A DNA stretch of 64,000 bases from Dehalococcoidia bacterium (GTDB lineage: Bacteria; Chloroflexota; Dehalococcoidia; SHYD01), in the NCBI GenBank assembly GCA_965220215.1, contig OZ244809.1, forward strand, positions 989,366-1,053,365, written 5' to 3'. The notes beneath the pieces were generated by a model that did no database searches, was not told the DNA's origin, and saw nothing but the letters and a program-made list of their open reading frames with translations. The position numbers were made by a program, and so were the translations under genes. Positions within the stretch are counted from its first letter, which is position 1. Each line of letters opens with the position of its first letter. Of the stretch, positions 1 to 12,507 are shown in pieces.

Positions 1-585
1 AGCAGCGCGCCGCCCAGGGCAGCAACGGCAGCGATTCCCGTCACGCCGCCCAGCAGCGCCACGTGGGGCGAATCCAGGCCGGTAAGAAGCACGGTAGCGA
101 CAAGAGCGAGGCCAAGCACTGCGCCCAAGTCCAGCAACCGGGCCAGCACGGTGGCGCTAGCCGCTATAGGCAGCGCGATGCCTCGGCCAGCCAGGAGCAC
201 GATACGTAAAGGCTCGCCAACCTTGATAGGGAAGAGGTGGTTGGCGAGCAACGAAATATGCAGGATGGCGAGTAGATGGAGAGTCTGACCTCCGTTGCGG
301 CCCAGCAAGACCCGCCACGCCCAGGCCCGCAGCAGGAACGCGCCGCCGTAGCCCGCAAGGAAGAGCGCCAGCCACTGGAGCGTGAGCGAAAGGCCGCTGA
401 TGGTCGCCAGCACCTGTGCGCTAAGGGGAGAGTAAGACAGCGAAAGTAGGAGAAGGAGGAGCGCGCCCGCCGTGCAAACCAGGCTGAGGACGCTCCAAGA
501 GGCCCGCCCCTGCAGCGACTGCTCCGCGCGCTGACCCAGTTGCGCCGCATAGTTGAGACTGGGCTTGGGAAGACTCTGCTGCATG
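1..585 (-). CDS. UPF0104 / flippase-like-domain membrane protein (lysylphosphatidylglycerol-synthase-type TM region). Partial gene running off the window start; the N-terminal 195 aa are present.
   Basis: Absent from the ORF track because there is no stop codon inside the window. Manual minus-strand translation from ATG 583-585 (GAGG lies 6-9 nt upstream) gives an uninterrupted hydrophobic ORF: MQQSLPKPSLNYAAQLGQRAEQSLQGRASWSVLSLVCTAGALLLLLLSL...AFLLRAWAWRVLLGRNGGQTLHLLAILHISLLANHLFPIKVGEPLRIVLLAGRG. The R-x-W-x-W-R-x-LL and FPxKxGEP-R motifs are typical of this family. The start lies 26 bp downstream of the ABC ATPase stop, consistent with the same operon. Confidence 0.6.
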
Positions 586-610
586 CTAGCCTCGGGTGTA
601 AACGGAGCGA

Positions 611-1669
611 CTACGTGGGGGTTGAGCCTACTGCTTCTTCAGCGGCAGCGAAGACCTGCACCGGGCCGACCACTTCAACCTCCACCCGCTGACCCAACTC
701 GAAGGCATTGGCAACGTCCACCCGAGCGCGGATCACACGGCCGGAAGCAAGCTGAATCGCGTAGCGCTGGGCGTGACCAAAGTATTCGCGACGCATCACT
801 TGGCCGCGCCCCTCTGCTGCGGCCTGCAGCCGCACACACTCCGGCTTCACATAGATGTCCACCGGCCCGGCTGCTTCGCCGGTAAACTGCAGATCGCCCA
901 GCTCGCACACTACGCGGTCGTCGTGCGCCTTGCCTGGCAGACAGTCCATGTCTCCCACAAACTGCGCAACCTCTCTGGAGATAGGGGTCTGATACACCAT
1001 TTCCGGCGTATCCACCTGCAGCACGCGTCCCTCCCACATCACGGCCACTTTATCGGCCAGGGACAGCGCCTCTTCCTGGTCGTGCGTCACGAAGACCGCG
1101 GTTGCGCCGGCATTTTCCAGGATCTCACGCACTTCGGCGCGCACCCGGGCACGCAATGTCGCATCGATGTTGGAGAAGGGCTCGTCCAGCAGGATAACCG
1201 CAGGCTGAGGGGCCAGCGCCCGGGCCAGCGCGATGCGCTGCTGTTGCCCGCCGGAAAGCTGGTGCGGGAAGCGCTCCCTGAGGTCGGCCAAGCCCACCAT
1301 CTCCAATATCCGTGAGACAGCGCTGTTCCTTGCCTCCTTGCTCATATGCATCAGCCCAAAGGCTACGTTATCCGCCACGTTCATATGGGGAAAGAGCGCG
1401 TAGTCCTGGAACACCATCCCCACGCGTCGTTGCTCCGGCGGCAATACGTGGCCGCGGTCTGCGACCACTCGTCCACTGATCTCGATTCGGCCGGCGTCGG
1501 GCGCTTCAAAGCCGGCCAACAAGCGTAAGGTGGTGGTCTTGCCGCAGCCGCTGGGCCCGACAAGAGAGAGCACTTCCCCCTCCGACACTTCCAGGTCAAC
1601 GCTGTCCACCGCCGTGGTGTGGCCAAAGCGCTTAGTCAGTCCGGTGCAGCGAATCACTACAGAAGCCAT
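611..1669 (-). CDS. ABC transporter ATP-binding protein, FbpC/PotA type with a C-terminal TOBE domain. Iron(III) import is likely.
   Basis: Walker A GPSGCGKTT, signature LSGGQQQRIALARAL, Walker B ILLDEPFSNID and H-loop VTHDQ. A roughly 110-aa C-terminal extension after the ATPase core is typical of FbpC/PotA/MalK. Confidence 0.9.
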   Translation of the reverse strand: MASVVIRCTGLTKRFGHTTAVDSVDLEVSEGEVLSLVGPSGCGKTTTLRLLAGFEAPDAGRIEISGRVVADRGHVLPPEQRRVGMVFQDYALFPHMNVADNVAFGLMHMSKEARNSAVSRILEMVGLADLRERFPHQLSGGQQQRIALARALAPQPAVILLDEPFSNIDATLRARVRAEVREILENAGATAVFVTHDQEEALSLADKVAVMWEGRVLQVDTPEMVYQTPISREVAQFVGDMDCLPGKAHDDRVVCELGDLQFTGEAAGPVDIYVKPECVRLQAAAEGRGQVMRREYFGHAQRYAIQLASGRVIRARVDVANAFELGQRVEVEVVGPVQVFAAAEEAVGSTPT

Positions 1670-1675
1670 ATTAGT

Positions 1676-3289
1676 TTACCTCCCCTCCTGCCTGAACAAG
1701 AGAGCAACGGATAAAGATGACGCCACTACTAAGAATAAGGATGGGACTGCGGCCTGTGCAAAGAGCGCTTCGCTGGCGGCGGACCAGATAGAAGTGGCGA
1801 GGGTCTCCACGCCCGGCGGACGCAAGAGCAGGGTGGCGGGCAGCTCTTCCATAGTCAGCAAAAATACCAGCGCCGCGCCGGCTATAACGCCCGGCAATAC
1901 AATGGGCAGCGTCACCTTAAAGAAGACGAGCCACGGCGGCATGCCCAGACTGCGGGCCGCCTCTTCCAGGTGTGGCGTCACCTGTCGGAGCGAGGTCCCT
2001 ATCCCGCCAAGGGCAGTGGGCAGGAAGAGGATAGCATAAGCCAGCAGCAGCAGGAACAACGTCTGGTACAACGGCTGCATATAGTTCGCGCCGAAAAATA
2101 CCAGTCCCAGGGCCAAGGCAATGCGGGGCAGCGCGAACCCTATATAGGTGGCGCTCTCCAGCAGCCTAGTGAGCGGCCCGGGATAGCGCACCGCGAGAAT
2201 TGCTATGGGCAGCGCCGCTAACACCGTGCACACCGCCGCCATCGCGGCGATGGACACCGAAGTGAAAGCTGCGTTCATGAAGAGATTTAAGGACTGTCCC
2301 GCTGCGATGCCCCGTACCGCCCATGTGATGAGCACGCCCAGCGGCAAGACCAGCGCGATCAGCAGCAGCACGCTTGAAAAGATAAGGGACGGCGCCTTCC
2401 ATGGCCCCAGACGATCCACCTTGCGCTCACGAGACGAGCCCGGATCGGAGCGGTAGTACTGCACGTTGCGCCGGGTCATCGCCTCCCCCAGGAGCACGAA
2501 AGCCGTCACCCCTACCAGCACTAGGGAGAGGCCGGCAGCCAGGCTCCGGTCGAAGGCGGACTGATACTGAACGTAGATGGCCCAAGTGAACGCCTCGTAG
2601 TTCATCAAGGAGACCGCGCCAAAGTCGCCCAAGCTGTAAAGCGCCGCTAACAGCGCGCCGCTAATAATGCCGGGCCGTAGCTGCGGTAGCAGGACTTGCC
2701 AGAAGGTCTCCCTGTTACTTCTTCCTAAATTGCGGGCCGCCTCTTCCATAGACGGGTCCAGCCGCTGCAACGCCGCGCGCACGGTGAGCATCACATAGGG
2801 GTAGGTGTGAAGTGTAAGCACCAGCAACGCGCCGGGAAAGCCGTAGAAGTCCGGGAGGCGTTCCACTCCCAGCGGAGCCAGCAAGCCCTGCACTAAGCCT
2901 TTTGGCCCAAAGGCAGTGATGAAGGCCAGTCCGCTCACATACGTCGGAATCACGAGGGGAAGAGTGGCCGCTATCAGCCAGAAACGGCGGAAGGGGATAT
3001 CCGTGCGGGTAGTGAGCCAGGCCAGTGGCACTCCTATCAGCACGGCCAGGGCCGTTACCGCCATAGTCAGTGCAAGGGAACGGAGGAAGATCGCCAGAAT
3101 GCGGATACTGAACAGGAAATCGAGTAGCTCCGGACCTGCGTTCAGCGCCCGCAGCAATAAGTAGATTACGGGCAAGGCAAGTGCTATGCCCACGACTGCC
3201 GCTGGCAGCGCCAGTCCAATGGGCGGCGCGCCGTGCCGGGAGCCGGACAGCAGCGGCCAGGTGATGGCCCGTGCCCACGACTTAGACAT
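1676..3289 (-). CDS. ABC transporter permease with two fused transmembrane domains (FbpB/ThiP-like, iron(III) type).
   Basis: 537-aa polytopic protein with duplicated permease halves; each half has an EAA-like loop (EEAARNLG... and EEAARSLG...). Lies 7 bp downstream of the binding-protein gene and 7 bp upstream of the ATPase gene. Confidence 0.85.
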   Translation of the reverse strand: MSKSWARAITWPLLSGSRHGAPPIGLALPAAVVGIALALPVIYLLLRALNAGPELLDFLFSIRILAIFLRSLALTMAVTALAVLIGVPLAWLTTRTDIPFRRFWLIAATLPLVIPTYVSGLAFITAFGPKGLVQGLLAPLGVERLPDFYGFPGALLVLTLHTYPYVMLTVRAALQRLDPSMEEAARNLGRSNRETFWQVLLPQLRPGIISGALLAALYSLGDFGAVSLMNYEAFTWAIYVQYQSAFDRSLAAGLSLVLVGVTAFVLLGEAMTRRNVQYYRSDPGSSRERKVDRLGPWKAPSLIFSSVLLLIALVLPLGVLITWAVRGIAAGQSLNLFMNAAFTSVSIAAMAAVCTVLAALPIAILAVRYPGPLTRLLESATYIGFALPRIALALGLVFFGANYMQPLYQTLFLLLLAYAILFLPTALGGIGTSLRQVTPHLEEAARSLGMPPWLVFFKVTLPIVLPGVIAGAALVFLLTMEELPATLLLRPPGVETLATSIWSAASEALFAQAAVPSLFLVVASSLSVALLFRQEGR

Positions 3290-3301
3290 GACTAGCTCGT
3301 G

Positions 3302-4324
3302 TTATGGAAGTACTCCTGTCTCTCGAAGCAGCTTCAGCGTACCCTCAACATCCCCCAGCTTATCCTGGTCTATCGCTGGAGGATCCAACTCATCAAAGGA
3401 TGTCAACCCGGCTGGCCCTGCCATACCCGCCACCAGCGGGTACTCAAAGGTCTTCTCTACAAAGAACTGCTGTGTCTCTTCGGACAAAAGGTAGGTCACA
3501 AATTTCTGTGCCGCCTCCTGCTGCTGGCTGCGCTTCAGGATACCCGCGCCTGCCACGTCCACTAACGACCCCGGATCGCCTCCCTGAAGAAAGAAGTTCC
3601 GTGCGCCAAAACTCTCGCCGCGCTCGTTGATGTACCGTGGCACGTAGTAATGATTCACAAAGCCGACCTCTATCTCACCATCAGCGGCAGCCTGCACGGT
3701 GCTGATGAGGTTGGGGTAGACGCGCGGCTCGTTGGCCTTGATGCCCAGCACCCATTGCCTTGCCCGCTCTTCGCCAAGTTGGATACGAAGCGCAGTCACC
3801 GTTAGCTGCCACTCTCCGTGGGTGGGCGACCAGCCGATCTTGCCCTTCCATGCAGGATCGGTGTAGTCAAGTATGGAAGTTGGGAGCGTCTTGGGGCTTT
3901 GCGCCTTGGTGTTGTACACCACAACCTTGGCGCGGCCGGAGGTGCCGACCCACTCCCCCTTGGTAGAGCGAAACCGCGGGTCCACCTTGTTGAGCACCGA
4001 CTCAGGCAGCGTCGCCAGAAATCCCCGCTGGGATAGGGCTCCCAAGCCGCTGCTCTCGCCCAAATAGACGAGGTCTGCGGGCGAGTTCTCCCCTTCTTCC
4101 AGCAGCGTTGCCACAATCGAAGCGGTCGTATCGTACTTCACTCGCAGGTTCACGCCCGCTGTTGCCGCGTAAGTGGTGAGTATGGGCTGTACCAGGCTCT
4201 GTGACCGGCTGGAGTAGACCGTGAGGGTAGGTGCATCGCCTTGGCCCATGCCGGGAATGGCGCACCCGCTTGCTATCAGCAGCCAGGCAAACGCCAAGCC
4301 CTGCAGGAAAATCAATCGGTTCAT
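3302..4324 (-). CDS. Periplasmic substrate-binding lipoprotein of the ABC transporter, FbpA/AfuA-like ferric-iron binding family.
   Basis: Lipoprotein signal MNRLIFLQGLAFAWLLIASGC. About 340 aa. The HYY tyrosine pair in VNHYYVPRY resembles the FbpA Fe ligands. Solute-binding family 1 architecture, first gene of the transporter operon. Confidence 0.75.
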   Translation of the reverse strand: MNRLIFLQGLAFAWLLIASGCAIPGMGQGDAPTLTVYSSRSQSLVQPILTTYAATAGVNLRVKYDTTASIVATLLEEGENSPADLVYLGESSGLGALSQRGFLATLPESVLNKVDPRFRSTKGEWVGTSGRAKVVVYNTKAQSPKTLPTSILDYTDPAWKGKIGWSPTHGEWQLTVTALRIQLGEERARQWVLGIKANEPRVYPNLISTVQAAADGEIEVGFVNHYYVPRYINERGESFGARNFFLQGGDPGSLVDVAGAGILKRSQQQEAAQKFVTYLLSEETQQFFVEKTFEYPLVAGMAGPAGLTSFDELDPPAIDQDKLGDVEGTLKLLRETGVLP

Positions 4325-4376
4325 AAGCGTGTGAAGCTATCCTCTCTTGTGCTACTGAACGGAGCCCTTCTACTTG

Positions 4377-4907
4377 TTACGGCGTCACCGTAAACGGCTT
4401 CCACATACCCAATTCATAGTGGCTCTCTAACGTGCCCTCCTCTACTTCCGCGATGTTGCAGATGAGCGCGTACTTACCGGGGGTCAGATTGAACACTCCC
4501 GATGCCTTAGAGTTTGCTGCAAAGGGCTCTATTTCACCCACTAGGTTTACCTTGTCCTCGGGCACTCTTCCCTCAGATGTCGGAAGGCCCTCAGGCGCAA
4601 GGTCTGTCTTGATAATGACCAACTCATGGGCATCATCCGGACCCAGGTTGTCAACCAGGAAGTAGATGTTACCGGCCTTGACTGTTGTGGTCTGCAACTG
4701 AATGTCCCACTCTCTGAGCGTCACGTTCACTTGGGTTGCGCCCGCTGGAATCGGTTCAACAACGCCTGGCTCGGCAGCGGCTCCGCTTACGGAGACGGAG
4801 GCCGATCCGCCCAAGTTCTCCACGGTCCCCGGACGCGGTTCCTCCTGGCAGGCGGCCGCAAGAAGAGCTAAGGCAAATGCGCTCGTAAACAGAAGTCGTG
4901 GGCTCAT
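4377..4907 (-). CDS. Cupredoxin-like lipoprotein resembling the EfeO N-terminal domain, with candidate type-1 copper ligands.
   Basis: Internal Met start MSPRLLFTSAFALALLAAAC is a lipobox. The NIYFLVDNLGPDDAHELVIIK motif matches the EfeO-type cupredoxin fold. Candidate ligands are H(DDAHE), C(LICNI), H(ESHYE) and M(LGM). The ORF track extends to 4967 with a TTG start; the internal ATG was chosen. Confidence 0.55.
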   Translation of the reverse strand: MSPRLLFTSAFALALLAAACQEEPRPGTVENLGGSASVSVSGAAAEPGVVEPIPAGATQVNVTLREWDIQLQTTTVKAGNIYFLVDNLGPDDAHELVIIKTDLAPEGLPTSEGRVPEDKVNLVGEIEPFAANSKASGVFNLTPGKYALICNIAEVEEGTLESHYELGMWKPFTVTP

Positions 4908-5037
4908 GTACTCATTTCTTAGATTATTGTGCCTTTCTATTATCCTGTTAGGTCTGCCTAATGGCAAACGTTGTAAAAGCTAATACTATCTGTTTGGTAT
5001 GTCAATACGGAAGTACCGTAGCTAACTCGGTTTTCCC

Positions 5038-5079
5038 CAGCTTGCGGCCTGCCGTGATGCATGGGCAGGCCGCAAGCTG
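5038..5079 (-). other. Intercistronic perfect 16-bp-stem hairpin: CAGCTTGCGGCCTGCC-gtgatgcatg-GGCAGGCCGCAAGCTG.
   Basis: Seen directly in the sequence. It lies immediately 3' of the 392-aa lipoprotein gene stop and 130 bp upstream of the cupredoxin gene. There is no U-tract on either strand. Confidence 0.5.
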
Positions 5080-5092
5080 CTATGTATAACAG

Positions 5093-6271
5093 CTACTGAA
5101 AGTCTGCCGGATTCACCAGGTCGCTATCTTTGAGCATCAGTGCTCCGGCCGTCCCATTGATAGCCGCGAGCGCACTATCCCGCATAGCGGTTGTGAGCTT
5201 GGTGGCATCACCCGTGTAGAAGTCCACAATTGCTTGATTCGCTGCAGCGTCCGCCAGGGCCACTTGCGGCTGGATATTCAAGTAGTAGGAGTAGCCCTCC
5301 ACCATGGCCGTCTTTGCCTTCTCTACATCGCCGCCTTGCACTGCCTTCACCGCTTCATTCAGGTACCGCACGCTACATAGGTAGAAGATCGCGTGGTATC
5401 GCGAGTAGACGTCGTTTGCTGCTGCGTCGTAGGCTTCCTGATTATCGTTGGTAGCTGCCTGCTGTGCCCGGCTCAGAGCTTCACGTAAGGGTGTGTCCAG
5501 CGTGCCCGGCCGGTTGAAGTTGGCCTCCCTGCTCTGTGCAACGGCTGCCAAAGAGTTGGGATACTTGCCGTCTTTCTCCTCGCCCACATAGATGGCCCAT
5601 GCCTCGTCAACCCAGCCTTCATTGAGAGTCTCGCGGGCGTTTTGTACGTAGCGCCGCGACCAGTGGTAGATGATTCGAAGGATGCCCTTCTTGATGGCTT
5701 GGCTTTGCTGGGCCGGAGTGTATCCTTCTGCGCTACGGCGGTTGCGAATTACGTCGCTAATATGCGTGTCCAGGAATGTCGGAGTGGCGTAGAACTCCGC
5801 GGCCACCGGATACTCTTTAGCACGCGACTCTGACCGTGCAAAGGCTCTCAGGGAGCGGCTGGAGGCCCCTAACCTGGTGTGCATCCCTGCTTCATACAGC
5901 AGCAGAATTTCAGCAGCGGGTAGCGGCTCGCCGTCCTTGACCCGATTAGCCAACGTTGCAATCTCCTGGTAGTCGGTAGAGATTTTCTGGTAGATCTCTC
6001 GGTTAGTGGTAGCGGTGAAAATACCATCGGATTTAGTGGGACCAGAAGTCTCAGGTTCTAGCCCAACTGGAATGAAGATTCCCTTATCGCCGAACTTGGA
6101 TGACATGGCTGGAGTTGGTGCCGGCGCTGCCACAGCAGAAACGGATACGCTGCCTCCTGTGCCGTCACCTATCGTCTCAACCGTGACAGGCCTGGATTCC
6201 ACCTGGCAGCCTAGTGCCGCCGCGGACAAGAGAAAAACGCTTACTATAGTGAGCCAACGTGAAAGGAACAT
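5093..6271 (-). CDS. Secreted lipoprotein of unknown function (Ala/Glu-rich, predicted helical), first gene of the putative iron-uptake operon.
   Basis: Lipobox MFLSRWLTIVSVFLLSAAALGC. No recognisable catalytic motif; an imelysin GxHxE motif was looked for and not found. Sits directly upstream of the cupredoxin-like gene with an AT-rich promoter region upstream. Confidence 0.45.
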   Translation of the reverse strand: MFLSRWLTIVSVFLLSAAALGCQVESRPVTVETIGDGTGGSVSVSAVAAPAPTPAMSSKFGDKGIFIPVGLEPETSGPTKSDGIFTATTNREIYQKISTDYQEIATLANRVKDGEPLPAAEILLLYEAGMHTRLGASSRSLRAFARSESRAKEYPVAAEFYATPTFLDTHISDVIRNRRSAEGYTPAQQSQAIKKGILRIIYHWSRRYVQNARETLNEGWVDEAWAIYVGEEKDGKYPNSLAAVAQSREANFNRPGTLDTPLREALSRAQQAATNDNQEAYDAAANDVYSRYHAIFYLCSVRYLNEAVKAVQGGDVEKAKTAMVEGYSYYLNIQPQVALADAAANQAIVDFYTGDATKLTTAMRDSALAAINGTAGALMLKDSDLVNPADFQ

Positions 6272-6317
6272 CCCTTACAACCTCCCAACTGTTAATTTAT
6301 TGGTTAGGGTCAGTTTA

Positions 6318-6343
6318 TTAGGTAACCCTAATAAGAATTATTA
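6318..6343. promoter_or_regulatory. Candidate metalloregulator operator: TTAGGTAACCCTAA inverted repeat (IdeR/DtxR-like half sites TTAGG/CCTAA) overlapping a TAATAA-N3-TTATTA palindrome, inside an AT-rich divergent promoter region.
   Basis: Seen in the sequence at 6318-6331 and 6329-6343. The region 6272-6611 is far more AT-rich than its surroundings and separates the divergent lipoprotein (minus) and ubiD (plus) genes. Confidence 0.3.
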
Positions 6344-6611
6344 GTGATTTTATAGCTGAGTTATTAGGCTGTCAATAGCAAATCTCTTCCCTATTTCAAA
6401 TATTCAGAACTTTTTTGCCCTCGAGTGTCTTAACTGTGACTGCTTCGAGCTAATGTTGCTGATGCCCAATAGAGCGGCAGCAGTTCTATACACCACCCTC
6501 CAAGGAGCTCGGCGCAGCAGGGACGATTAGCCACGGACAATTGACAGTGGTTGTAGCTTGCCCGCATCATGATTGAGCTATGCCGTTGACACAAAAAGTT
6601 AGATCCCGACG

Positions 6612-8069
6612 ATGGCTTTTACCGACCTTCACCAATTTGTAGAGTTCCTGGACCGCAACCACCGGTTGCAACGGATCAAGGCGTCCGTTGACCCGGTGCT
6701 GGAGCTCGCCGAGATCACGGACCGTGTCTGCAAGGCAGACGGCGGCGGCACAGCCCTCCTCTTTGAGCACGTGCAGGGTTCGAGCATGCCCGTGCTTATC
6801 AACACCTTCGGCAGTGAGGAGCGTATGTGCTGGGCGCTGGGCGTGGATAGCCTGGACGATCTGGGCGCGCGCATCAGTCACCTGTTGAGCATGAACATGC
6901 CCACATCCTTTGTGGAGCGCGCAAAGAAGCTCCTGGAGATGAGCGAGGTTGCCCGCTTCTCACCCAAAGTGGTAAGCCAAGCGCCCTGCCAGGAACTCGT
7001 AGAGACCGTCAATCCCTCTCTGGCAGATATCCCCATCATGCAGTGCTGGCCTGATGACGGAGGCCGCTATATCACCTTCCCCCTGGTCTTCACCAAGAAC
7101 CCTTCTACTGGGCAGCGCAACGTGGGGACGTACCGCCTCCAGGTCTACGACGACCGTACCCTGGGGATGCACTGGCACATTCATAAAGGCGGCGCAGAGC
7201 ACTTCCGGCAGGGCCAGGAACGCGGTCGGGGATTAGAGGTCGCCATCGCTCTGGGCGCGGACCCGGTCACCATGTACGCCGGCACCTGCCCGCTCCCGCC
7301 TATTGTGGACGAGATGATGCTGGCGGGGTGGCTCCGTCGTGAGCGTGTAGAGATGGTGAAAGGTGTAACCGTAGACCTAGAGGTGCCAGCCCATGCGGAG
7401 ATCATCCTGGAAGGCTACGTTGACCCGCAGGAGCATCGCACAGAGGGCCCATTCGGCGACCACACCGGTTTCTATTCCTTAGAGGACGAGTATCCCGTCT
7501 TCCATCTGACCGCGGTCACCAGACGCCGCGATGCCATCTACCCATCGATCATTGTTGGACGGCCGCCCATGGAGGACGGCTGGCTGGGCAAGGCTACGGA
7601 ACGCCTCTTTCTGCCGCTGATACGGTTAATCCATCCAGAAGTGGTGGACATAGACATGCCCTTTGAGGGCAGTTTTCACAACCTGGTGATTGTCTCTGTT
7701 CGCAAGTCCTATCCAGGGCAGGTGCGCAAAGTGATGTACGGCCTGTGGAGCCTTGGCCTCTTGATGCTTGCCAAGAACATCATCGTGCTGGATGAAGACG
7801 CGAACGTGCACGATGCAAGCGAGGTGGTGTGGCGCATCACAAACAACGTCGACCCCAAACGAGACGTGGTCATTGTTGACGGACCGCTGGATGCCCTGGA
7901 CTACGCATCGCCGATGCCGCACTACGGCTCTAAGATGGGCATAGACGGCACTAAGAAGGGGCCAATGGATGGACACACCCGACCCTGGCCGGAAGAGGTC
8001 ACCATGTCGCCGGAGGTCAAGGAATTGGTCACTCGGCGCTGGCAGGAGTACGGCATCCGGCTCAACTGA
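6612..8069 (+). CDS. ubiD: UbiD-family prFMN-dependent decarboxylase (menaquinone/ubiquinone biosynthesis decarboxylase).
   Basis: 485 aa. The N-terminus MAFTDLHQFVEFLDRNHRLQRI and full-length similarity to 3-octaprenyl-4-hydroxybenzoate carboxy-lyase are recognised. Operonic with the UbiA prenyltransferase downstream. Confidence 0.85.
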   Translation: MAFTDLHQFVEFLDRNHRLQRIKASVDPVLELAEITDRVCKADGGGTALLFEHVQGSSMPVLINTFGSEERMCWALGVDSLDDLGARISHLLSMNMPTSFVERAKKLLEMSEVARFSPKVVSQAPCQELVETVNPSLADIPIMQCWPDDGGRYITFPLVFTKNPSTGQRNVGTYRLQVYDDRTLGMHWHIHKGGAEHFRQGQERGRGLEVAIALGADPVTMYAGTCPLPPIVDEMMLAGWLRRERVEMVKGVTVDLEVPAHAEIILEGYVDPQEHRTEGPFGDHTGFYSLEDEYPVFHLTAVTRRRDAIYPSIIVGRPPMEDGWLGKATERLFLPLIRLIHPEVVDIDMPFEGSFHNLVIVSVRKSYPGQVRKVMYGLWSLGLLMLAKNIIVLDEDANVHDASEVVWRITNNVDPKRDVVIVDGPLDALDYASPMPHYGSKMGIDGTKKGPMDGHTRPWPEEVTMSPEVKELVTRRWQEYGIRLN

Positions 8070-8116
8070 AGTTCAACAAACTAACACTCCTAACGAAGAG
8101 TTGAGGCGCCTCCCAT

Positions 8117-8773
8117 ATGCGGGTAAAACACGCACACTACACGCACAAAACGCCCTTCCGTGCCCATTCCTTCCTGTCCGACGTGCCGCTGCACGATGTC
8201 TGGGCTATCCTTCTGCACGCACGCGGGCCTAAACGTAACATTCAGGATGTACGACGCGTCCTTGCCTCCCTGCGCACTGAGCACCCTGACCCGCTTGTGG
8301 CCTTCTTTCTACGCGCCCGGCAGCGGCTAGGACACATCTTTGAGTGGGACGACGATAATCACGGCACACCGGACAGCTCTTACGTGCACCGTCTCACGCC
8401 GGACGACCGCAGCCGCTCTTTGGAACCGCCGGGGACGATTGACCCCGCCTCCGACTTTCGTGTGCTCTACGTCTTTGAGGATGAGGCCGCCTTCGAAGTC
8501 ATTAACGGCACCGGGCAGTCCTTCTTCGTCATCGCAATGGAACCTTTGGCTGAAGGCTACATTCTTTATGCCGCAGTCTACGTGAAGAATACGAACTGGT
8601 TCACACCTTTCTACACCGTCGTAGCAGACCCCTTTCTCCGCTACATCATCTACCCCACCATCATCCATAACCTGGAGTCATTATGGGCGGGACTCTACGC
8701 CCGGCCGCGCGGGCACGCGCCGCCGCCACCCCCGCCACTTCCTCCCCCTAGGTCATTTAGAGGCCGGTTCTGA
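8117..8773 (+). CDS. Hypothetical protein with a Pro-rich C-terminus, embedded between the ubiD and ubiA genes.
   Basis: 218-aa ORF. Its stop overlaps the ubiA start by 4 bp (ATGA), suggesting translational coupling. No recognisable motif. The C-terminus is PPPPPPLPPPRSFRGRF. Confidence 0.45.
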   Translation: MRVKHAHYTHKTPFRAHSFLSDVPLHDVWAILLHARGPKRNIQDVRRVLASLRTEHPDPLVAFFLRARQRLGHIFEWDDDNHGTPDSSYVHRLTPDDRSRSLEPPGTIDPASDFRVLYVFEDEAAFEVINGTGQSFFVIAMEPLAEGYILYAAVYVKNTNWFTPFYTVVADPFLRYIIYPTIIHNLESLWAGLYARPRGHAPPPPPPLPPPRSFRGRF

Positions 8774-9630
8774 TGCTGCTCTACCGCAAGCTGCGCCTGC
8801 TCCTTGAGAACATCCGCTTTGAGCAGTCTGTGTTTGCCTTGCCCTTTGCCTACCTGGGCATGGTGCTGGCGGCCCAGGGCCTGCCCACGCTTTACCAATT
8901 GCTGTGGATCACTCTCGCCATGGTGGGCGCGCGCAGCTTTGCCATGAGCATGAACCGCCTCCAAGACTTAGACTTAGACCTTCGCCATATGCGAGCACGT
9001 GAGCGGCCAATCCCTTCAGGACGGTTAAGCATTGCGGAGGTGCTGGTGTTCAGCCTTGCCGCCGCTGCGCTCTTGCTGTTCGCCGCCAGCCAGCTCAATC
9101 CGCTGTGCGTCCTGCTCTCCCCCATCGCCCTAGTGGTGTTCTCCGGCTACTCTTATGTGAAGCGGGTGAGCTGGCTCACTCACTTTGTGCTGGGCATCGC
9201 GCTGGGCGGCGCGCCGGTAGGGGGCTGGATTGCAGTAACAGGCGCATTGGGCTGGGAGCCGGTGCTGCTCGGACTCTCCGTAGCGGCCTGGGCCAGCGGG
9301 TTTGATGTGCTCTATGCTTGTGGAGACGCCGGCGAGGATCGCAGTTTGGGCGTCAAGACTATTCCGGTGCGCTTCGGCATCCCGACTGCGCTGGCGCTTT
9401 CCGCCGTGCTCCACGTGATAACGGCGCTATTGCTCATCGGCGTGGGCGTTGCCTTTGGGCTAAGCTGGCCTTATTGGCTTGGGCTAACCTTTACCCTTAG
9501 CCTCTTGGCCTACCAGCACCGCGTGGTCACTCCAAACGACCTCTCTCGCCTCAATGCGGCCTTCTTTACCGTGAACGGTGCGGTGTCCCTCGTCATCTTT
9601 CTCAGCGCCTTCATCAGCCTGCCGCGCTAG
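8773..9630 (+). CDS. ubiA: UbiA-family aromatic prenyltransferase (4-hydroxybenzoate polyprenyltransferase / MqnP-like).
   Basis: 285-aa polytopic membrane protein. The N-terminus LLLENIRFEQSVFALPFAYLGMVLAA is typical of UbiA/MqnP. Adjacent to a UbiD-family gene. Confidence 0.8.
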   Translation: MLLYRKLRLLLENIRFEQSVFALPFAYLGMVLAAQGLPTLYQLLWITLAMVGARSFAMSMNRLQDLDLDLRHMRARERPIPSGRLSIAEVLVFSLAAAALLLFAASQLNPLCVLLSPIALVVFSGYSYVKRVSWLTHFVLGIALGGAPVGGWIAVTGALGWEPVLLGLSVAAWASGFDVLYACGDAGEDRSLGVKTIPVRFGIPTALALSAVLHVITALLLIGVGVAFGLSWPYWLGLTFTLSLLAYQHRVVTPNDLSRLNAAFFTVNGAVSLVIFLSAFISLPR

Positions 9631-9688
9631 TGTAGACTCCTTGCTATACTAAAAGCGGACTTTACGAATCTAACGGGAGTACACGCAC

Positions 9689-10345
9689 GTGGCTGAGCAA
9701 GAAGAGACCCACGAGCTTCCCCTCTTTCCCCTAAATACCGTCCTGTTCCCCAGAATGGAGCTACCCCTCCGCGTCTTTGAGCAACGCTACCGAGAGATGG
9801 TGGCCCACTGCATGGAAAGAGACCAGACCTTTGGCGTCGTCCTCATCAAGCACGGGAACGAAATCGGCATACCGGCCGTACCCTACTCCGTGGGCACTAC
9901 CACACACATCGACTCCATTGAGAACTTGGCAGACGGCACGCTGGCAGTGATGACCAGCGGCGTCCGGCGCTTTGTGCTGGAGGAGGTAATCCAGGAACGG
10001 CCCTTCCAGATAGGGCGCGTCACCTATCCGGAGGACACCGCTAATCCCCTCTCGGACACCGCCTTTGCGGAGATGCGGGAATTAGCAGCGCGCTGCGTTC
10101 AACGCTGGCTAGCGCTCAACCGCCAGTGGATGCGTGAACCGCCGCTGCCTCGTAGCCAGCGCGGCCTCTCCTTCTCCATCGCCGTGCGCTTGCCTCTGGA
10201 GATGGACGTCAAACAGATGCTACTGGAATGTCCTAGCGCATCGGAACGCCTGGAAAAAGAACGAACGCTCCTCACCCAAGAAGAGGAGCGTCTCAACCGG
10301 CTTATTCTGGAGCAGGCTTGGCTCCAGACGGCCAGAATGAACTAG
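9689..10345 (+). CDS. Lon N-terminal (LON substrate-binding) domain protein, a stand-alone protein.
   Basis: LPLFPLNTVLFPRMELPLRVFEQRYREM matches the Lon N-domain signature. GTG start. Confidence 0.8.
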   Translation: MAEQEETHELPLFPLNTVLFPRMELPLRVFEQRYREMVAHCMERDQTFGVVLIKHGNEIGIPAVPYSVGTTTHIDSIENLADGTLAVMTSGVRRFVLEEVIQERPFQIGRVTYPEDTANPLSDTAFAEMRELAARCVQRWLALNRQWMREPPLPRSQRGLSFSIAVRLPLEMDVKQMLLECPSASERLEKERTLLTQEEERLNRLILEQAWLQTARMN

Positions 10346-10710
10346 TCGCCGCTGCGGCGCACTACTTCAACCCCTGCGTAGTCCAGCGCGCCCGGCAATG
10401 GTACGCCCGGCTTCTTTACCCGTACCAGCACGCCGTTCACGGGAAACGTTTGCAGCACCTTGTTCGCTATAGCCGTTGCAAGGGCTTCCAGTAAGCGATA
10501 GGGCGCACCCTGCACGATTGAGGCCACTGTCTCGTACACGTTGCCGTAATCGATAGTGTCGGCTAGGTCATCGGAGTCCCCGCTCTTGGAGAGGTCCGCC
10601 TCCAGTTCCACGTCTACTACAAAACGCTGGCCCAAGCGCTGCTCTTCGGGTGAAACCCCGTGATAGCCATAGAAGACCATGCCGTGCAACAGCATGCGGT
10701 CAGCGGTCAC
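10342..10710 (-). CDS. folB: Dihydroneopterin aldolase.
   Basis: 122 aa. The MLLHGMVFYGYHGVSPEEQRLGQRFVVDVEL motif is characteristic of FolB. Confidence 0.85.
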   Translation of the reverse strand: MTADRMLLHGMVFYGYHGVSPEEQRLGQRFVVDVELEADLSKSGDSDDLADTIDYGNVYETVASIVQGAPYRLLEALATAIANKVLQTFPVNGVLVRVKKPGVPLPGALDYAGVEVVRRSGD

Positions 10711-11296
10711 GATAGGGATTGACTCCTTGTAACCCTAGTACCGGCGCGGCCTCTTTCATGGCATCGATGACAAAGGCGATGTGCTCCTTCATGTCCAAGT
10801 CCATCTCTTCGATGCCTACCCGGATATCCTCGCGACTGACCGACCTCGCAAAAGCCTTGTCTTTCATCTTCTTGATGACCGAATCCGCATCAACTTCCCA
10901 TATGCTTTTGTTAGGCTTGACCAGGGCCGTAGCGGTGACAAGGCCCGTGAGCTCATCTACGGAAAAGAGGGCCTTATCCAGCAACGTAGAGCGGGGCACA
11001 CCCGTAGCCGCGTTGTGGGCCATCACCGCATGGACCACCTCCTCTGGAAAGCTACGCTCTGTGAGAATGCGTCCTCCCACCGTGGCATGCTCTTCTGGCG
11101 CGGGATACTGCTCGTAGTCAAAATCATGGAGCAGTCCCGTCATGCCCCAGAGGTCCCGATCCTGCTTGAATTTCAACGCGTAGGCACGCATCACTGCCTC
11201 AACGGTCAGTCCATGCTTAACTAGGCTGTCTGCCTTAGTTAGCTCTGAGAAGACTTCCCAGGCATCCGAGCGGGTTTTCTTGCTGGCCTCTGCCAT
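10700..11296 (-). CDS. HD-domain metal-dependent phosphohydrolase.
   Basis: 198 aa. The HD motif LLHDFDYEQYPAPEEHATVGGRIL plus HAVMAHN is present. Confidence 0.75.
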   Translation of the reverse strand: MAEASKKTRSDAWEVFSELTKADSLVKHGLTVEAVMRAYALKFKQDRDLWGMTGLLHDFDYEQYPAPEEHATVGGRILTERSFPEEVVHAVMAHNAATGVPRSTLLDKALFSVDELTGLVTATALVKPNKSIWEVDADSVIKKMKDKAFARSVSREDIRVGIEEMDLDMKEHIAFVIDAMKEAAPVLGLQGVNPYRDR

Positions 11297-11358
11297 CTCT
11301 CACCTCAGCATTGTTTGCTACACCATATATATTGAGCACGAATTTGCACTCAGTGACC

Positions 11359-11387
11359 TTGACGCACTTTGCACCCGATGCTATGAT
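11359..11387 (+). promoter_or_regulatory. Sigma70-type promoter, TTGACG-N17-TATGAT, upstream of the cytochrome c gene.
   Basis: The -35 TTGACG is at 11359-11364, followed by a 17-nt spacer and the -10 TATGAT at 11382-11387, 38 bp before ATG 11425. Confidence 0.55.
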
Positions 11388-11424
11388 GCTGCTGTTTGTG
11401 ATTTTTGTCATTAAGAGACACAGC

Positions 11425-11868
11425 ATGGAGCGCATACTAGTAGCCTTAGGTCTGATCATTGCGTTAAGCATTGCGTGTGCGCAAGCTGGCCCTGTGCCTG
11501 CCACTCCTGTCGGCGGCGGCCCCATGCCCACAGCCACTCGTCCCGCTACAGAAGACAGCGGGGTGATTCCCGGTCAGTCTCCTGCCGACGCGGGGAAGGG
11601 ACTGTTGACCTCCAAGGGCTGCATAGCCTGCCACACTGTTCCCAACGTACCCGGCGCCGTCGGGACTATCGGCCCAGCACTGGATGGGGTCGCGGATCCC
11701 GAAAAACGGCCTACTATTGCGGACGGTAATTTGGAAAACACCCCAAGCAACATGAGGCGCTGGCTTTCCAACCCCCCTGCCGTAAAAGCAGGCACTTTGA
11801 TGCCCAATTTGAGCCTGAGTCCCGACGAAATAGACAGCCTGTTAGCGTATATTGAAACGCTGAAGTAA
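11425..11868 (+). CDS. Class I c-type cytochrome with a signal peptide.
   Basis: Signal MERILVALGLIIALSIACAQA and haem-binding CIACH (CxxCH). The ORF track offers 11311, but that start overlaps the promoter; the internal Met was chosen. Confidence 0.8.
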   Translation: MERILVALGLIIALSIACAQAGPVPATPVGGGPMPTATRPATEDSGVIPGQSPADAGKGLLTSKGCIACHTVPNVPGAVGTIGPALDGVADPEKRPTIADGNLENTPSNMRRWLSNPPAVKAGTLMPNLSLSPDEIDSLLAYIETLK

Positions 11869-11891
11869 CCCCCTAAGGGGGTTACTTTTTT
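11866..11891. terminator. Rho-independent terminator TAACCCCC-taa-GGGGGTTA followed by TTTTTT, probably bidirectional.
   Basis: An 8-bp GC stem with a U-tract directly after the cytochrome c stop. It overlaps the stop of the convergent aldolase gene. Confidence 0.8.
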
Positions 11892-12507
11892 ATGGCCTTG
11901 GTCCGCCTATGGTAGAAGCGATCTCTTCTACCGAAGGGCGACCTTCTCTCTGAGACGCCTCTAACTGCCGGTAAATGGTGATGAGTTTGCAGCACTCTTC
12001 CAGCAGCGATGTCCAGCGGTGCGCCTCTTCCAGCAACTGCCCCACAGCAAAGGTGCCGTGGCCGCGCACAACTACTACTTTGGATTCCCGCAGGAGCGAC
12101 GCCAGCTCTTCAGCCACCGTACGCACCTGAAACACTACCTCATTGCCCACAACCGGCACGAGTTCCAGATTATGCCGAGCTTCCGCATCCAACGGCTGGA
12201 TGACCCGCTCACGCAGCGAGAGCGCAACAGCATACGCCGGATGCGCGTGGACAATAGCATGCGCGCCCGTGCGCTGATAGAGGAAGCGGTGAATAGATAG
12301 CTCCGACGAAGCGGAGGGCGTGGCGCGGTCGTTCCAGTCCACACCTGTCTCCACCAAATCCTGCTCCCTGAGGTGTGCCAACCGGGAGGCTCGCCGAGTA
12401 ATGATAAGCTTGTCACCAGCCCGCACGCTCAGGTTGCCACCGTGGGAGGACACTAGCCCTCTTGTAAAAAGATCGCTGCCTACTTCTTGAAACTCTTGTA
12501 AGCGCAT
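11890..12507 (-). CDS. Class II aldolase/adducin family protein (fuculose-phosphate aldolase / MtnB-like).
   Basis: SHGGNLSVR and the HAHP metal-binding motifs are present. Confidence 0.8.
   Translation of the reverse strand: MRLQEFQEVGSDLFTRGLVSSHGGNLSVRAGDKLIITRRASRLAHLREQDLVETGVDWNDRATPSASSELSIHRFLYQRTGAHAIVHAHPAYAVALSLRERVIQPLDAEARHNLELVPVVGNEVVFQVRTVAEELASLLRESKVVVVRGHGTFAVGQLLEEAHRWTSLLEECCKLITIYRQLEASQREGRPSVEEIASTIGGPRP

Follow-up and report, generated by a model that had tools for sequence, protein, structure and literature searches.

Organization of the locus

We analyzed a 64,000-nucleotide stretch of the genome of a Dehalococcoidia bacterium (contig OZ244809.1), called here the window. 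The subject of this work is a gene cluster in it, located wholly on the minus strand, which joins two lipoprotein genes to an iron transporter. In the 5' to 3' order, the cluster contains the genes for a Fea1-like lipoprotein of 392 amino acids (aa), a cupredoxin lipoprotein, an FbpA-type binding protein, a permease, and an ATPase, followed by the start of a flippase-like/GT2 gene (Table 1). The initial annotation placed the two lipoprotein genes directly upstream of a Fe(III)-type ATP-binding cassette (ABC) importer on the same strand. This arrangement holds, with the lipoboxes AALGC and LAAAC found in the first and second protein, respectively. The operon extends beyond the ATPase into the flippase-like/GT2 gene. 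The frame of this last gene exits the left end of the window, and its first 194 codons are inside.

Table 1. Features of the cluster, with positions in the window.
Feature	Position	Strand	Basis
Putative strong promoter P1 of the Fea1-like gene, TTGACA-17-TAAAAT	6347..6375	-	11 of 12 consensus matches; kept in relatives
Operator region O1: palindrome TTAGGGTTACCTAA (6331..6318, minus) and 4 of the 5 CTAATAA/TTATTAG heptamers of the window	6315..6367		
Lipoprotein of 392 aa assigned to the Fea1 (FEA1/ISIP2a, phytotransferrin) superfamily	5093..6271	-	NF038033, PF07692 relatives, AlphaFold2 model
Perfect 16-bp GC-rich hairpin just past the stop codon of the Fea1-like gene, without U tract	5038..5079	-	RNA folding
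Putative promoter P2, TTGCCA-17-GATAAT, with operator O2 TTAGGCAGACCTAA (4961..4948) within the spacer	4939..4967	-	10 of 12 consensus matches
Cupredoxin lipoprotein of 176 aa, type-1 Cu ligands H94, C150, H163, M168	4377..4907	-	AlphaFold2, Foldseek, alignment
FbpA-type ferric-iron binding lipoprotein, 340 aa; E90, H169, Y226, Y227	3302..4324	-	Structure-linked profile matches, Pfam
Fused two-module ABC permease, FbpB-like, 537 aa	1676..3289	-	Two BPD_transp_1 stretches
ABC ATPase, FbpC-like, 352 aa, C-terminal TOBE_2	611..1669	-	Pfam, NCBIfam
Flippase-like (LPG_synthase_TM) and GT2 polyprenyl-phosphate-sugar-synthase-like gene, 5' part	1..584	-	Open frame from ATG 584

The Fea1-like lipoprotein

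The 392-aa protein has a signal peptide followed by a lipobox (...SAAALG-C22), and its placement is predicted to be extracytoplasmic or at the surface. It was first described as a novel protein with no recognizable domain, and this description has to be replaced. The protein matches the NCBIfam model NF038033 (FEA1-related lipoprotein) with an E-value (E) of 2.3e-19 over residues 40-385. The score of 69 bits is far under the 250-bit equivalog cut-off, and a Pfam scan of the protein itself gives no match above threshold, neither to Fea1 nor to M75. Five of 40 full-length homologues (46-55% identity) match Pfam Fea1 (PF07692), the best of them with E 3e-22. The family profile, compared with 1.84 billion representatives, recovers only 259 proteins. 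Seven of the ten remote matches tested belong to PF07692, including a multi-domain protein of 2083 aa with three Fea1 repeats. These comparisons indicate that the 392-aa protein is a diverged bacterial subfamily of the FEA1/ISIP2a superfamily, and not an NF038033 equivalog. The link to the Fea1 fold rests on sequence profiles only.

The AlphaFold2 model has a predicted local distance difference test (pLDDT) score of 88, greater than 95 in the core, and is all-alpha. A disordered tether rich in Ser, Thr, and Pro (residues ~23-62, ~40 residues) precedes the all-alpha domain. The top Foldseek match of the model is EfeM, but it is weak (E 0.27), and generic helix bundles match the fold at least as well as EfeO/EfeM. 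Likewise, the PDB profile search with the family gave nothing meaningful. The Fea1-like fold is without any solved structure. The family alignment contains 37 invariant columns, mostly Tyr, Asp, Glu, and Arg, among them Y94, D100, Y126, E127, E223, Y228, Y237, E249, and Y297. This set is compatible with Fe(III)-oxyanion binding, and proves nothing.

The absence of an M75 (imelysin) domain, already stated in the initial annotation, is confirmed. The HxxE motif is missing from the protein, as is GEEDRY. In hhalign, the Fea1-like profile and an M75 protein give a probability of 1.3%, that is, no similarity. We reject the imelysin identity because of this null profile comparison and the missing HxxE motif; in addition, the membership in the Fea1 family is clear. 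In algae, the FEA1, Ot-Fea1, and ISIP2a proteins are surface proteins associated with iron and induced by iron deficiency (PMC7676907, PMC4855317, PMC7966952). A bacterial origin of ISIP2A is asserted only (PMC7966952).

The cupredoxin lipoprotein

The start codon of the second lipoprotein is the ATG at 4907. The length is 176 aa, since the 177 aa given previously count the stop codon. The motifs NIYFLVDNLG and HELVI are both present. The profile matches are modest. The one to Pfam Cupredoxin_1 (E 0.011) falls short of the threshold, that to NCBIfam EfeO has E 4.4e-4 at profile positions 15-99, and the PDB profile match to EfeO has E 4.3e-4. The initial annotation proposed structure prediction as a check. 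The AlphaFold2 model, built with 44 sequences, has a pLDDT of 85 overall and greater than 94 over residues 50-176, and is all-beta with 11 strands. In Foldseek, it matches auracyanin (3e-7), azurin (1e-6), EfeO (7wgu_A, 1.6e-6), and AcoP. At the level of the model, the cupredoxin beta-sandwich fold is confirmed.

The residues H94, C150, H163, and M168 are invariant in the alignment of 44 sequences. In the profile alignment, their counterparts in the Roseiflexus auracyanin 6kol are its His, Cys, His, and Met. From these alignments, the protein appears to hold the complete type-1 Cu ligand set. The first description, a free-standing cupredoxin of the EfeO N-terminal type, remains valid for a protein that is both EfeO-like and auracyanin-like.

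The Cys-His loop is C-NIAEVEEGTLES-H, namely C-x12-H (CNIAEVEEGTLESH), and it is acidic. It has 12 residues compared with the usual 2-4, with an acidic insertion of eight residues relative to auracyanin. Inside the loop, E155 and E162 are invariant. Fe(II) could dock at this loop, by analogy with the EfeO cupredoxin domain, Fet3p, and P19, for which the model couples the copper site with an acidic patch for iron (PMC9174327). A free-standing cupredoxin, FtrB, oxidizes Fe2+ in vitro (PMC11966278).

The cupredoxin family is large, with 191 clusters found, mostly from Dehalococcoidia/Chloroflexota, and its members are often annotated as "uncharacterized cupredoxin-like copper-binding protein". 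A member from Thermaerobacter, Tmar_0494, is annotated as an EfeO-type cupredoxin. In one related locus (L127:4762-6354), the cupredoxin domain is fused on the C-terminal side of HmuY-like (haem-binding) domains. The gene after this fusion (L127:6518-8107) encodes a three-domain multicopper oxidase.

The ferric ABC importer

The FbpA homologue is ~45-50% identical to structurally proven ferric-binding proteins. Among solved ferric-binding proteins, it matches 7w3w (E 1.5e-76), Thermus thermophilus FbpA 4elo (8e-65), and Haemophilus FbpA (~1e-51). Its residues H225-Y226-Y227, which are the HYY pair seen in the initial annotation, align with the NHYY/NNYY segments of these proteins (VNHYYVPRY versus TNHYYVVRF and VNNYYLPRF). 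The Pfam families matched are SBP_bac_6/8/11/1. The permease resembles, in NCBIfam, the PhnU2/ThiP-type fused architecture. The ATPase matches ABC_tran (1.9e-37), TOBE_2 (8e-9), and the ferric ABC ATPase model NF008513 (9e-81). These matches agree with the complete importer described first, and they argue for a genuine FbpABC-type ferric importer with an ordinary FbpA binding protein. The best NCBIfam names (PhnS2/U2/T2) correspond to a 2-aminoethylphosphonate transporter. We discarded this identity, as all these matches are far below the cut-offs and the binding protein is much closer to the solved ferric-binding proteins.

Gene context in related genomes

We scored by tblastn the context of the Fea1-like gene in 66 genomes, with one locus per species, almost all of them metagenome-assembled genomes of Dehalococcoidia. 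The FbpA homologue is directly downstream of the Fea1-like gene in 60 of the 66 loci. The Fea1-like gene forms a tandem or fused pair in 49. A fusion gene of flippase-like, (alkaline-phosphatase-superfamily), and GT2 domains is present in 61 loci, in 58 of them upstream on the same strand. A gene for a polytopic protein of 470-530 aa is also found in 61. The Fea1-FbpA core sits between the flippase-phosphodiesterase-GT2 fusion gene and the gene of this polytopic membrane protein. Within 8 kb of the cluster, imelysin is present in 22 of the 66 loci, DHOR in 21, and ferritin in 9.

The cupredoxin is adjacent in only 6 of the 66 Fea1-like loci. The ABC permease is within 8 kb in 5. A study of the co-occurrence of the 392-aa family with cupredoxin and Fbp genes was among the checks suggested initially. 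From the cupredoxin side, we examined 80 metagenome loci together with individual look-ups. The closer homologues (at least 55% identity) are repeatedly found just before FbpA or inside the cluster, often without a Fea1-like gene. In L071, L092, L097-L099, and L101, the cupredoxin is directly before FbpA and the Fea1-like gene is missing. One recurrent order is flippase-GT2, cupredoxin, FbpA, and polytopic protein. In Thermaerobacter, the order is sulfatase, GT2, cupredoxin, FbpA, polytopic protein, permease, and ATPase. The distant homologues (L070, L094, L096) have heterogeneous and unrelated neighbourhoods. FbpA with the sugar-transfer genes is therefore the stable core, to which either lipoprotein, Fea1-like or cupredoxin, or both can be added as accessories. 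The order seen in the window (Fea1-like, cupredoxin, FbpABC, flippase-GT2) is a minority arrangement.

Four close relatives (L069, L152, L153, L154) encode proteins ~80-97% identical to those of the window and have the same flanks. All four share an identical deletion of 1020 bp (window 6027..5006), which removes the Fea1-like gene and the hairpin. It leaves an intact open reading frame for an 88-aa lipoprotein stub. Both operators are preserved, and the cupredoxin and FbpABC genes are retained. As the deletion is identical in the four relatives, it is a single ancestral event. The two lipoproteins do not form the dedicated pair that was first proposed.

The genes that diverge from the iron cluster (6612-9630, plus strand) encode a UbiD-family decarboxylase, a DUF2867 protein, and a UbiA prenyltransferase. 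This UbiD/UbiA synteny is identical in the four close relatives. None of the operon genes encodes EfeU, EfeB, P19 (FtrA), or an FTR1-type permease; up to 14 kb, the neighbouring genes encode UbiD, UbiA, and other proteins. Another related locus has in its flank (L017:1296-1393) a group II intron match, to domains V/VI, with 53 bits, which exceeds the gathering score.

Sugar-transfer genes and a shared tether

The strongly conserved linkage to lipid-linked sugar-transfer genes is not mentioned in the initial annotation. The partial flippase/GT2 product of the window is 96% identical to a 747-aa protein of L069. This protein matches LPG_synthase_TM (8e-32), the flippase-like TIGR00374 (1e-12), Glycos_transf_2 (2e-18), and AglJ (2e-31). 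Tested on this relative, the GT2 domain is similar to AglJ, PpgS, and ArnC, that is, to polyprenyl-phosphate sugar synthases. The flippase/GT2 fusions often include an alkaline-phosphatase-superfamily (phosphodiesterase-like) domain. Genes for UDP-glucose dehydrogenase and epimerase are found nearby.

The polytopic protein family has an invariant D-E-P motif in the first loop, near the N-terminus. Searches against Pfam and PDB gave no match, and a weak one was obtained with NF047440 ("putative glycosyltransferase", E 2e-5). The protein, whose gene is outside the window, is a candidate GT-C-type transferase.

Both lipoprotein families carry, after the lipobox, the module C-x(1-3)-E-[DQ]-R-P-x-V-[DE]-V-[IL]-G, and then a tract rich in Ser, Thr, and Gly. 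The module is present in 41 of 57 Fea1-like and 70 of 110 cupredoxin full-length members. In the window, the N-termini of the two lipoproteins (6208-6137 and 4847-4780) have 46% identity over ~40 residues. The module is thus common to two families of unrelated folds, and it may serve as a recognition or modification signal. The shared Ser/Thr tether might be the target of the sugar-transfer machinery, because the lipid-linked sugar-transfer genes are co-encoded.

Promoters, operators, and regulation

The GC content falls to 0.47 at 6001-6500, compared with ~0.58-0.60 on either side. The scan around the cluster gives six promoter-like sites versus 1.5 expected. The palindrome TTAGG-N4-CCTAA (TTAGGNNNNCCTAA) has exactly two exact copies in the 64 kb, at O1 and O2. 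The first lies just 3' of the -10 element of P1, and the second inside the spacer of P2. The CTAATAA/TTATTAG heptamers of the operator region O1 are at 6315, 6328, 6338, and 6361. Both palindromes and P2 are kept in the four close relatives. Exact copies also precede cluster genes in L002, L059, L080, and L088, and versions that differ at one position are found in L005 and L070. The 1.18 Mb of loci contain 11 palindrome sites; the regions upstream of cluster genes, which make up 6% of the sequence, hold 7 of them, versus 0.65 expected.

The half-sites TTAGG/CCTAA match DtxR/IdeR boxes. Compared with the consensus sequences, the control region reaches 12/19 for the Fur box and 13/19 for the canonical IdeR box. 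Therefore, of the AT-rich control region with iron-box-like repeats described initially, the composition and the clustering of the repeats stand, but the repeats resemble DtxR/IdeR half-sites more than a Fur box. We rejected the Fur-box reading of this region, as 12/19 is not distinctive and the recurring element is TTAGG-N4-CCTAA.

The intergenic RNA between the lipoprotein genes has a folding energy of -63.4 kcal/mol (z = -4.5). Its hairpin was considered as a canonical terminator and rejected, since the scan did not call it and it lacks a U tract. The hairpin and the second promoter separate the two lipoprotein genes, which are therefore probably transcribed as two units. The operators at both promoters and the iron genes near related clusters make iron-responsive control a well-motivated hypothesis, and such control would act on the two units together. 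No known RNA family was found with Rfam in window positions 1-12000.

Related loci present other elements. In L064 (14700-14900), the elements after a promoter are an IdeR-like box TTAGGTTAGGCCACCCTAA (17/19) and two more palindromes of the form TTAG...CTAA. The box and a 14-bp variant precede an imelysin (M75) gene that neighbours a ferritin gene, and the palindromes are likewise upstream of it. In Thermaerobacter marianensis (L071, CP002344.1), a Fur-box-like sequence ATTAATGACACTCATTATC (15/19) is ~20 bp upstream of locus position 5109, directly upstream of the entire sulfatase-GT2-cupredoxin-FbpA-polytopic-permease-ATPase cluster. In L006, L017, L019, L022, L029, L036, L039, and L054, a TTGACA promoter is followed by three ~TACACG direct repeats, ~20 nucleotides apart, before flippase-GT2. 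These repeats suggest a different regulator for the same cluster.

About 19 Dehalococcoidia loci have a conserved leader of ~95 nucleotides (for example L025:4008-4123, L012:4003-4118, and L067:4071-4186). It is flanked on one side by the flippase-GT2 gene at the head of the Fea1-FbpA cluster, and on the other by a divergent imelysin-DHOR operon. The leader folds into three hairpins. Five of the 29 predicted pairs show compensatory changes, three of them in the first stem of 13 bp. The C-rich loops (CCCCUCCC, CCCUCCUCC) look anti-Shine-Dalgarno-like, and a U-rich tract follows the last hairpin in some loci. An Rfam search of these leaders found no family, only a weak ar14-like match of 16 bits. 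The leader may be a new cis-regulatory RNA.

Proposed function and alternatives

We consider it probable that the cluster is a metal-regulated ferric-iron acquisition locus of Dehalococcoidia-class Chloroflexota, working as follows. Three membrane-tethered lipoproteins would act outside the cytoplasmic membrane. The Fea1/phytotransferrin-like lipoprotein would capture and concentrate Fe(III) at the cell surface. The type-1 cupredoxin, with the acidic loop beside its Cu site, would take one electron from Fe(II), giving Fe(III) for capture. The FbpA-type protein would receive Fe(III) and pass it to the FbpB/FbpC importer. The co-transcribed flippase-GT2 protein and the product of the next gene by synteny (the polytopic protein) would make a lipid-linked sugar and transfer it outside the membrane. 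The most likely acceptor would be the Ser/Thr-rich tethers shared by the cupredoxin and the Fea1-like protein, the alternative being a surface polymer. One of the two promoters would drive the Fea1-like gene and the other the cupredoxin-FbpABC-GT2 genes. A single DtxR/IdeR-like repressor could co-regulate both via the TTAGG-N4-CCTAA operators. The logic envisaged in the initial annotation, in which oxidase-assisted iron uptake is joined to an ABC transporter, is kept as the most plausible one.

Several observations weigh against this proposal. The Fea1-like family alignment has no conserved His or Cys. Reduction of O2 is beyond a lone type-1 copper centre, and the cluster encodes no electron sink for the cupredoxin. 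An ABC permease is within 8 kb in only 5 of the 66 loci, so most Fea1-FbpA loci are without one. The tight linkage to the sugar-transfer genes could mean an envelope-related primary function. The Fea1-like gene is dispensable for the cupredoxin-FbpABC module, because the four close relatives lost it. As for the regulation, the half-sites are spaced by 4 bp compared with 9 bp in the canonical IdeR box, and tblastn found no Fur or DtxR regulator gene in the window, only spurious short matches. Finally, metal binding is still unproven for Chlamydomonas FEA1 (PMC7676907).

A wider version of the proposal is more doubtful, and we offer it tentatively. It would be a surface iron-capture system of the monoderm Chloroflexota and Thermaerobacter, in which Fea1 and cupredoxin ferroxidase-like lipoproteins feed FbpA. 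The shared EDRP...VIG and Ser/Thr tether would be glycosylated or phospho-modified by the flippase-phosphodiesterase-GT2 protein together with a GT-C-like enzyme of a new kind. The FEA1/ISIP2a uptake of algae would derive from the Fea1-FbpA pairing as its prokaryotic form.

Among the alternatives, the one that survives best concerns the cupredoxin. It might not be a ferroxidase but an auracyanin-like carrier that reduces surface-bound Fe(III) for release, or a respiratory shuttle merely sharing the locus. Its best structural matches are indeed the auracyanins, lipoprotein blue-copper electron carriers of Chloroflexota, with which it has the complete type-1 ligand set in common. Cyanobacterial FutA-type proteins, reported to handle both Fe(II) and Fe(III), also count for this explanation, as do the unrelated contexts of the distant family members L070, L094, and L096. 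However, the homologues with at least 55% identity return to the place right before FbpA or to the same cluster, and the cupredoxin and FbpABC have a promoter and operator in common. Auracyanin and azurin have no such long acidic Cys-His loop, and the HmuY-cupredoxin fusion beside a multicopper oxidase belongs to an iron/haem context. We regard a non-ferroxidase cupredoxin as unlikely.

It is less likely still that the cluster is primarily an envelope glycoconjugate system, in which the lipoproteins and the binding protein serve that pathway or bind its cation, and not nutritional iron. The linkage of the flippase/GT2 and polytopic protein genes to the Fea1-like gene (61/66 each) is as strong as that of FbpA, and just 5 of 66 loci have the permease and ATPase alongside. 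The resemblance of GT2 to AglJ, PpgS, and ArnC and the nearby UDP-glucose dehydrogenase and epimerase genes go in the same direction. Nevertheless, the binding protein has ~45-50% identity to structurally proven ferric-binding proteins, with the Tyr-Tyr pair kept, and both Fea1 and EfeO-type cupredoxins are iron-associated families. Imelysin, DHOR, and ferritin genes near a third of the loci, the Fur-like and IdeR-like boxes, and the complete ABC importer in the operon of the window and several other loci also favor iron.

The initial proposal of a split EfeO, with the cupredoxin and the helical lipoprotein standing for its two domains and the latter being a diverged M75/imelysin, is very improbable: the cupredoxin does match the EfeO N-terminus (NCBIfam, PDB profile, and Foldseek), the helical protein has EfeM as its weak top Foldseek match and a weak NCBIfam EfeO match (E 0.008), and M75-only EfeO forms (EfeM/EfeOII) exist (PMC9174327), but the HxxE motif and any Pfam or hhalign M75 signal are missing, the helical family is clearly Fea1, the pair is together in 6 of 66 loci only, many cupredoxin loci have no Fea1-like gene, the close relatives lost the helical gene, and the operon has neither EfeU nor EfeB.

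Comparison with known systems

Each component of the proposed ferric-iron acquisition locus belongs to a known family. The Fea1-like protein is in the same superfamily as algal FEA1/FEA2 and diatom ISIP2a (PF07692), with a surface or periplasmic location in both cases. Domain duplication occurs in both groups, with 49 of 66 bacterial loci having a pair and the algal proteins carrying 2-10 domains (PMC4855317). In contrast to the algal proteins, the bacterial one is a lipoprotein, partnered with FbpA and an ABC importer and not with FTR1 or endocytosis.

By analogy, the closest system is FOX1-FEA1-FTR1 of Chlamydomonas, not EfeUOB. Both combine a copper-dependent oxidant, a Fea1 protein, and a Fe(III) transporter, with the ABC importer taking the place of FTR1 and a single type-1 cupredoxin instead of the multicopper oxidase FOX1. 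According to Allen et al. 2007, as cited in PMC7676907, FOX1, FEA1, and FTR1 are co-expressed under iron deficiency in Chlamydomonas.

The EfeUOB and EfeM systems (E. coli EfeO; P. syringae EfeO and the M75-only EfeM) also have an EfeO-type cupredoxin by a helical extracytoplasmic protein in an iron operon (PMC9174327). The present cluster differs from them in the absence of an M75 domain, HxxE/GEEDRY, EfeU, and EfeB, in the import by an ABC system, and in its cupredoxin, a separate 176-aa protein with the full His/Cys/His/Met set. In FtrABCD of Brucella and Bordetella, a stand-alone extracytoplasmic cupredoxin is likewise encoded in an iron transporter operon (PMC11966278). However, FtrB is a Cup-II protein with Asp/His Cu ligands and works with P19 (FtrA) and an FTR1-type permease (FtrC), whereas here type-1 ligands occur with FbpABC.

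The binding protein, fused permease, and TOBE ATPase are ordinary members of the FbpABC/HitABC/SfuABC/FutABC type. These systems, unlike the present one, are not described with Fea1-like or cupredoxin lipoproteins or with co-transcribed sugar-transfer genes. Auracyanins are membrane-tethered. Those of Chloroflexus and Roseiflexus are the best structural matches of the cupredoxin, with the same ligand set and from the same phylum. Their Cys-His loop is short (C-x4-H) and their role is in respiration or photosynthesis, whereas the protein of the window has the acidic C-x12-H loop and is encoded in an iron-transport operon.

The sugar-transfer genes resemble three-component glycosylation systems (GtrABC, CsbB-GtcA-YfhO, and the Ppm1-Pmt O-mannosylation) in having a GT2 synthase-like, a flippase-like, and a polytopic protein. 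They differ in the fusion of flippase and GT2, often with an alkaline-phosphatase-superfamily domain, and in the polytopic protein, which has no Pfam/PDB match. The literature searched gave no account of Fea1 proteins in bacteria. It likewise describes neither their coupling with FbpA and a type-1 cupredoxin nor their linkage to glycosylation genes.

Implications

The link to the glycosylation genes and the common tether point to a dedicated modification of iron-uptake lipoproteins, not described in the literature searched. FEA1 and ISIP2a control iron uptake in globally important phytoplankton, and little is settled about their fold, their iron ligands, and the partner to which they hand off iron. 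The bacterial relatives are lipoproteins whose genes are tied to that of an FbpA-type protein (60 of 66 genomes), and in some cases a blue-copper protein accompanies them. They supply small soluble domains fit for structural and metal-binding work. They also offer a testable model, in which capture would be followed by an optional copper-dependent oxidation and the hand-off to the binding protein.

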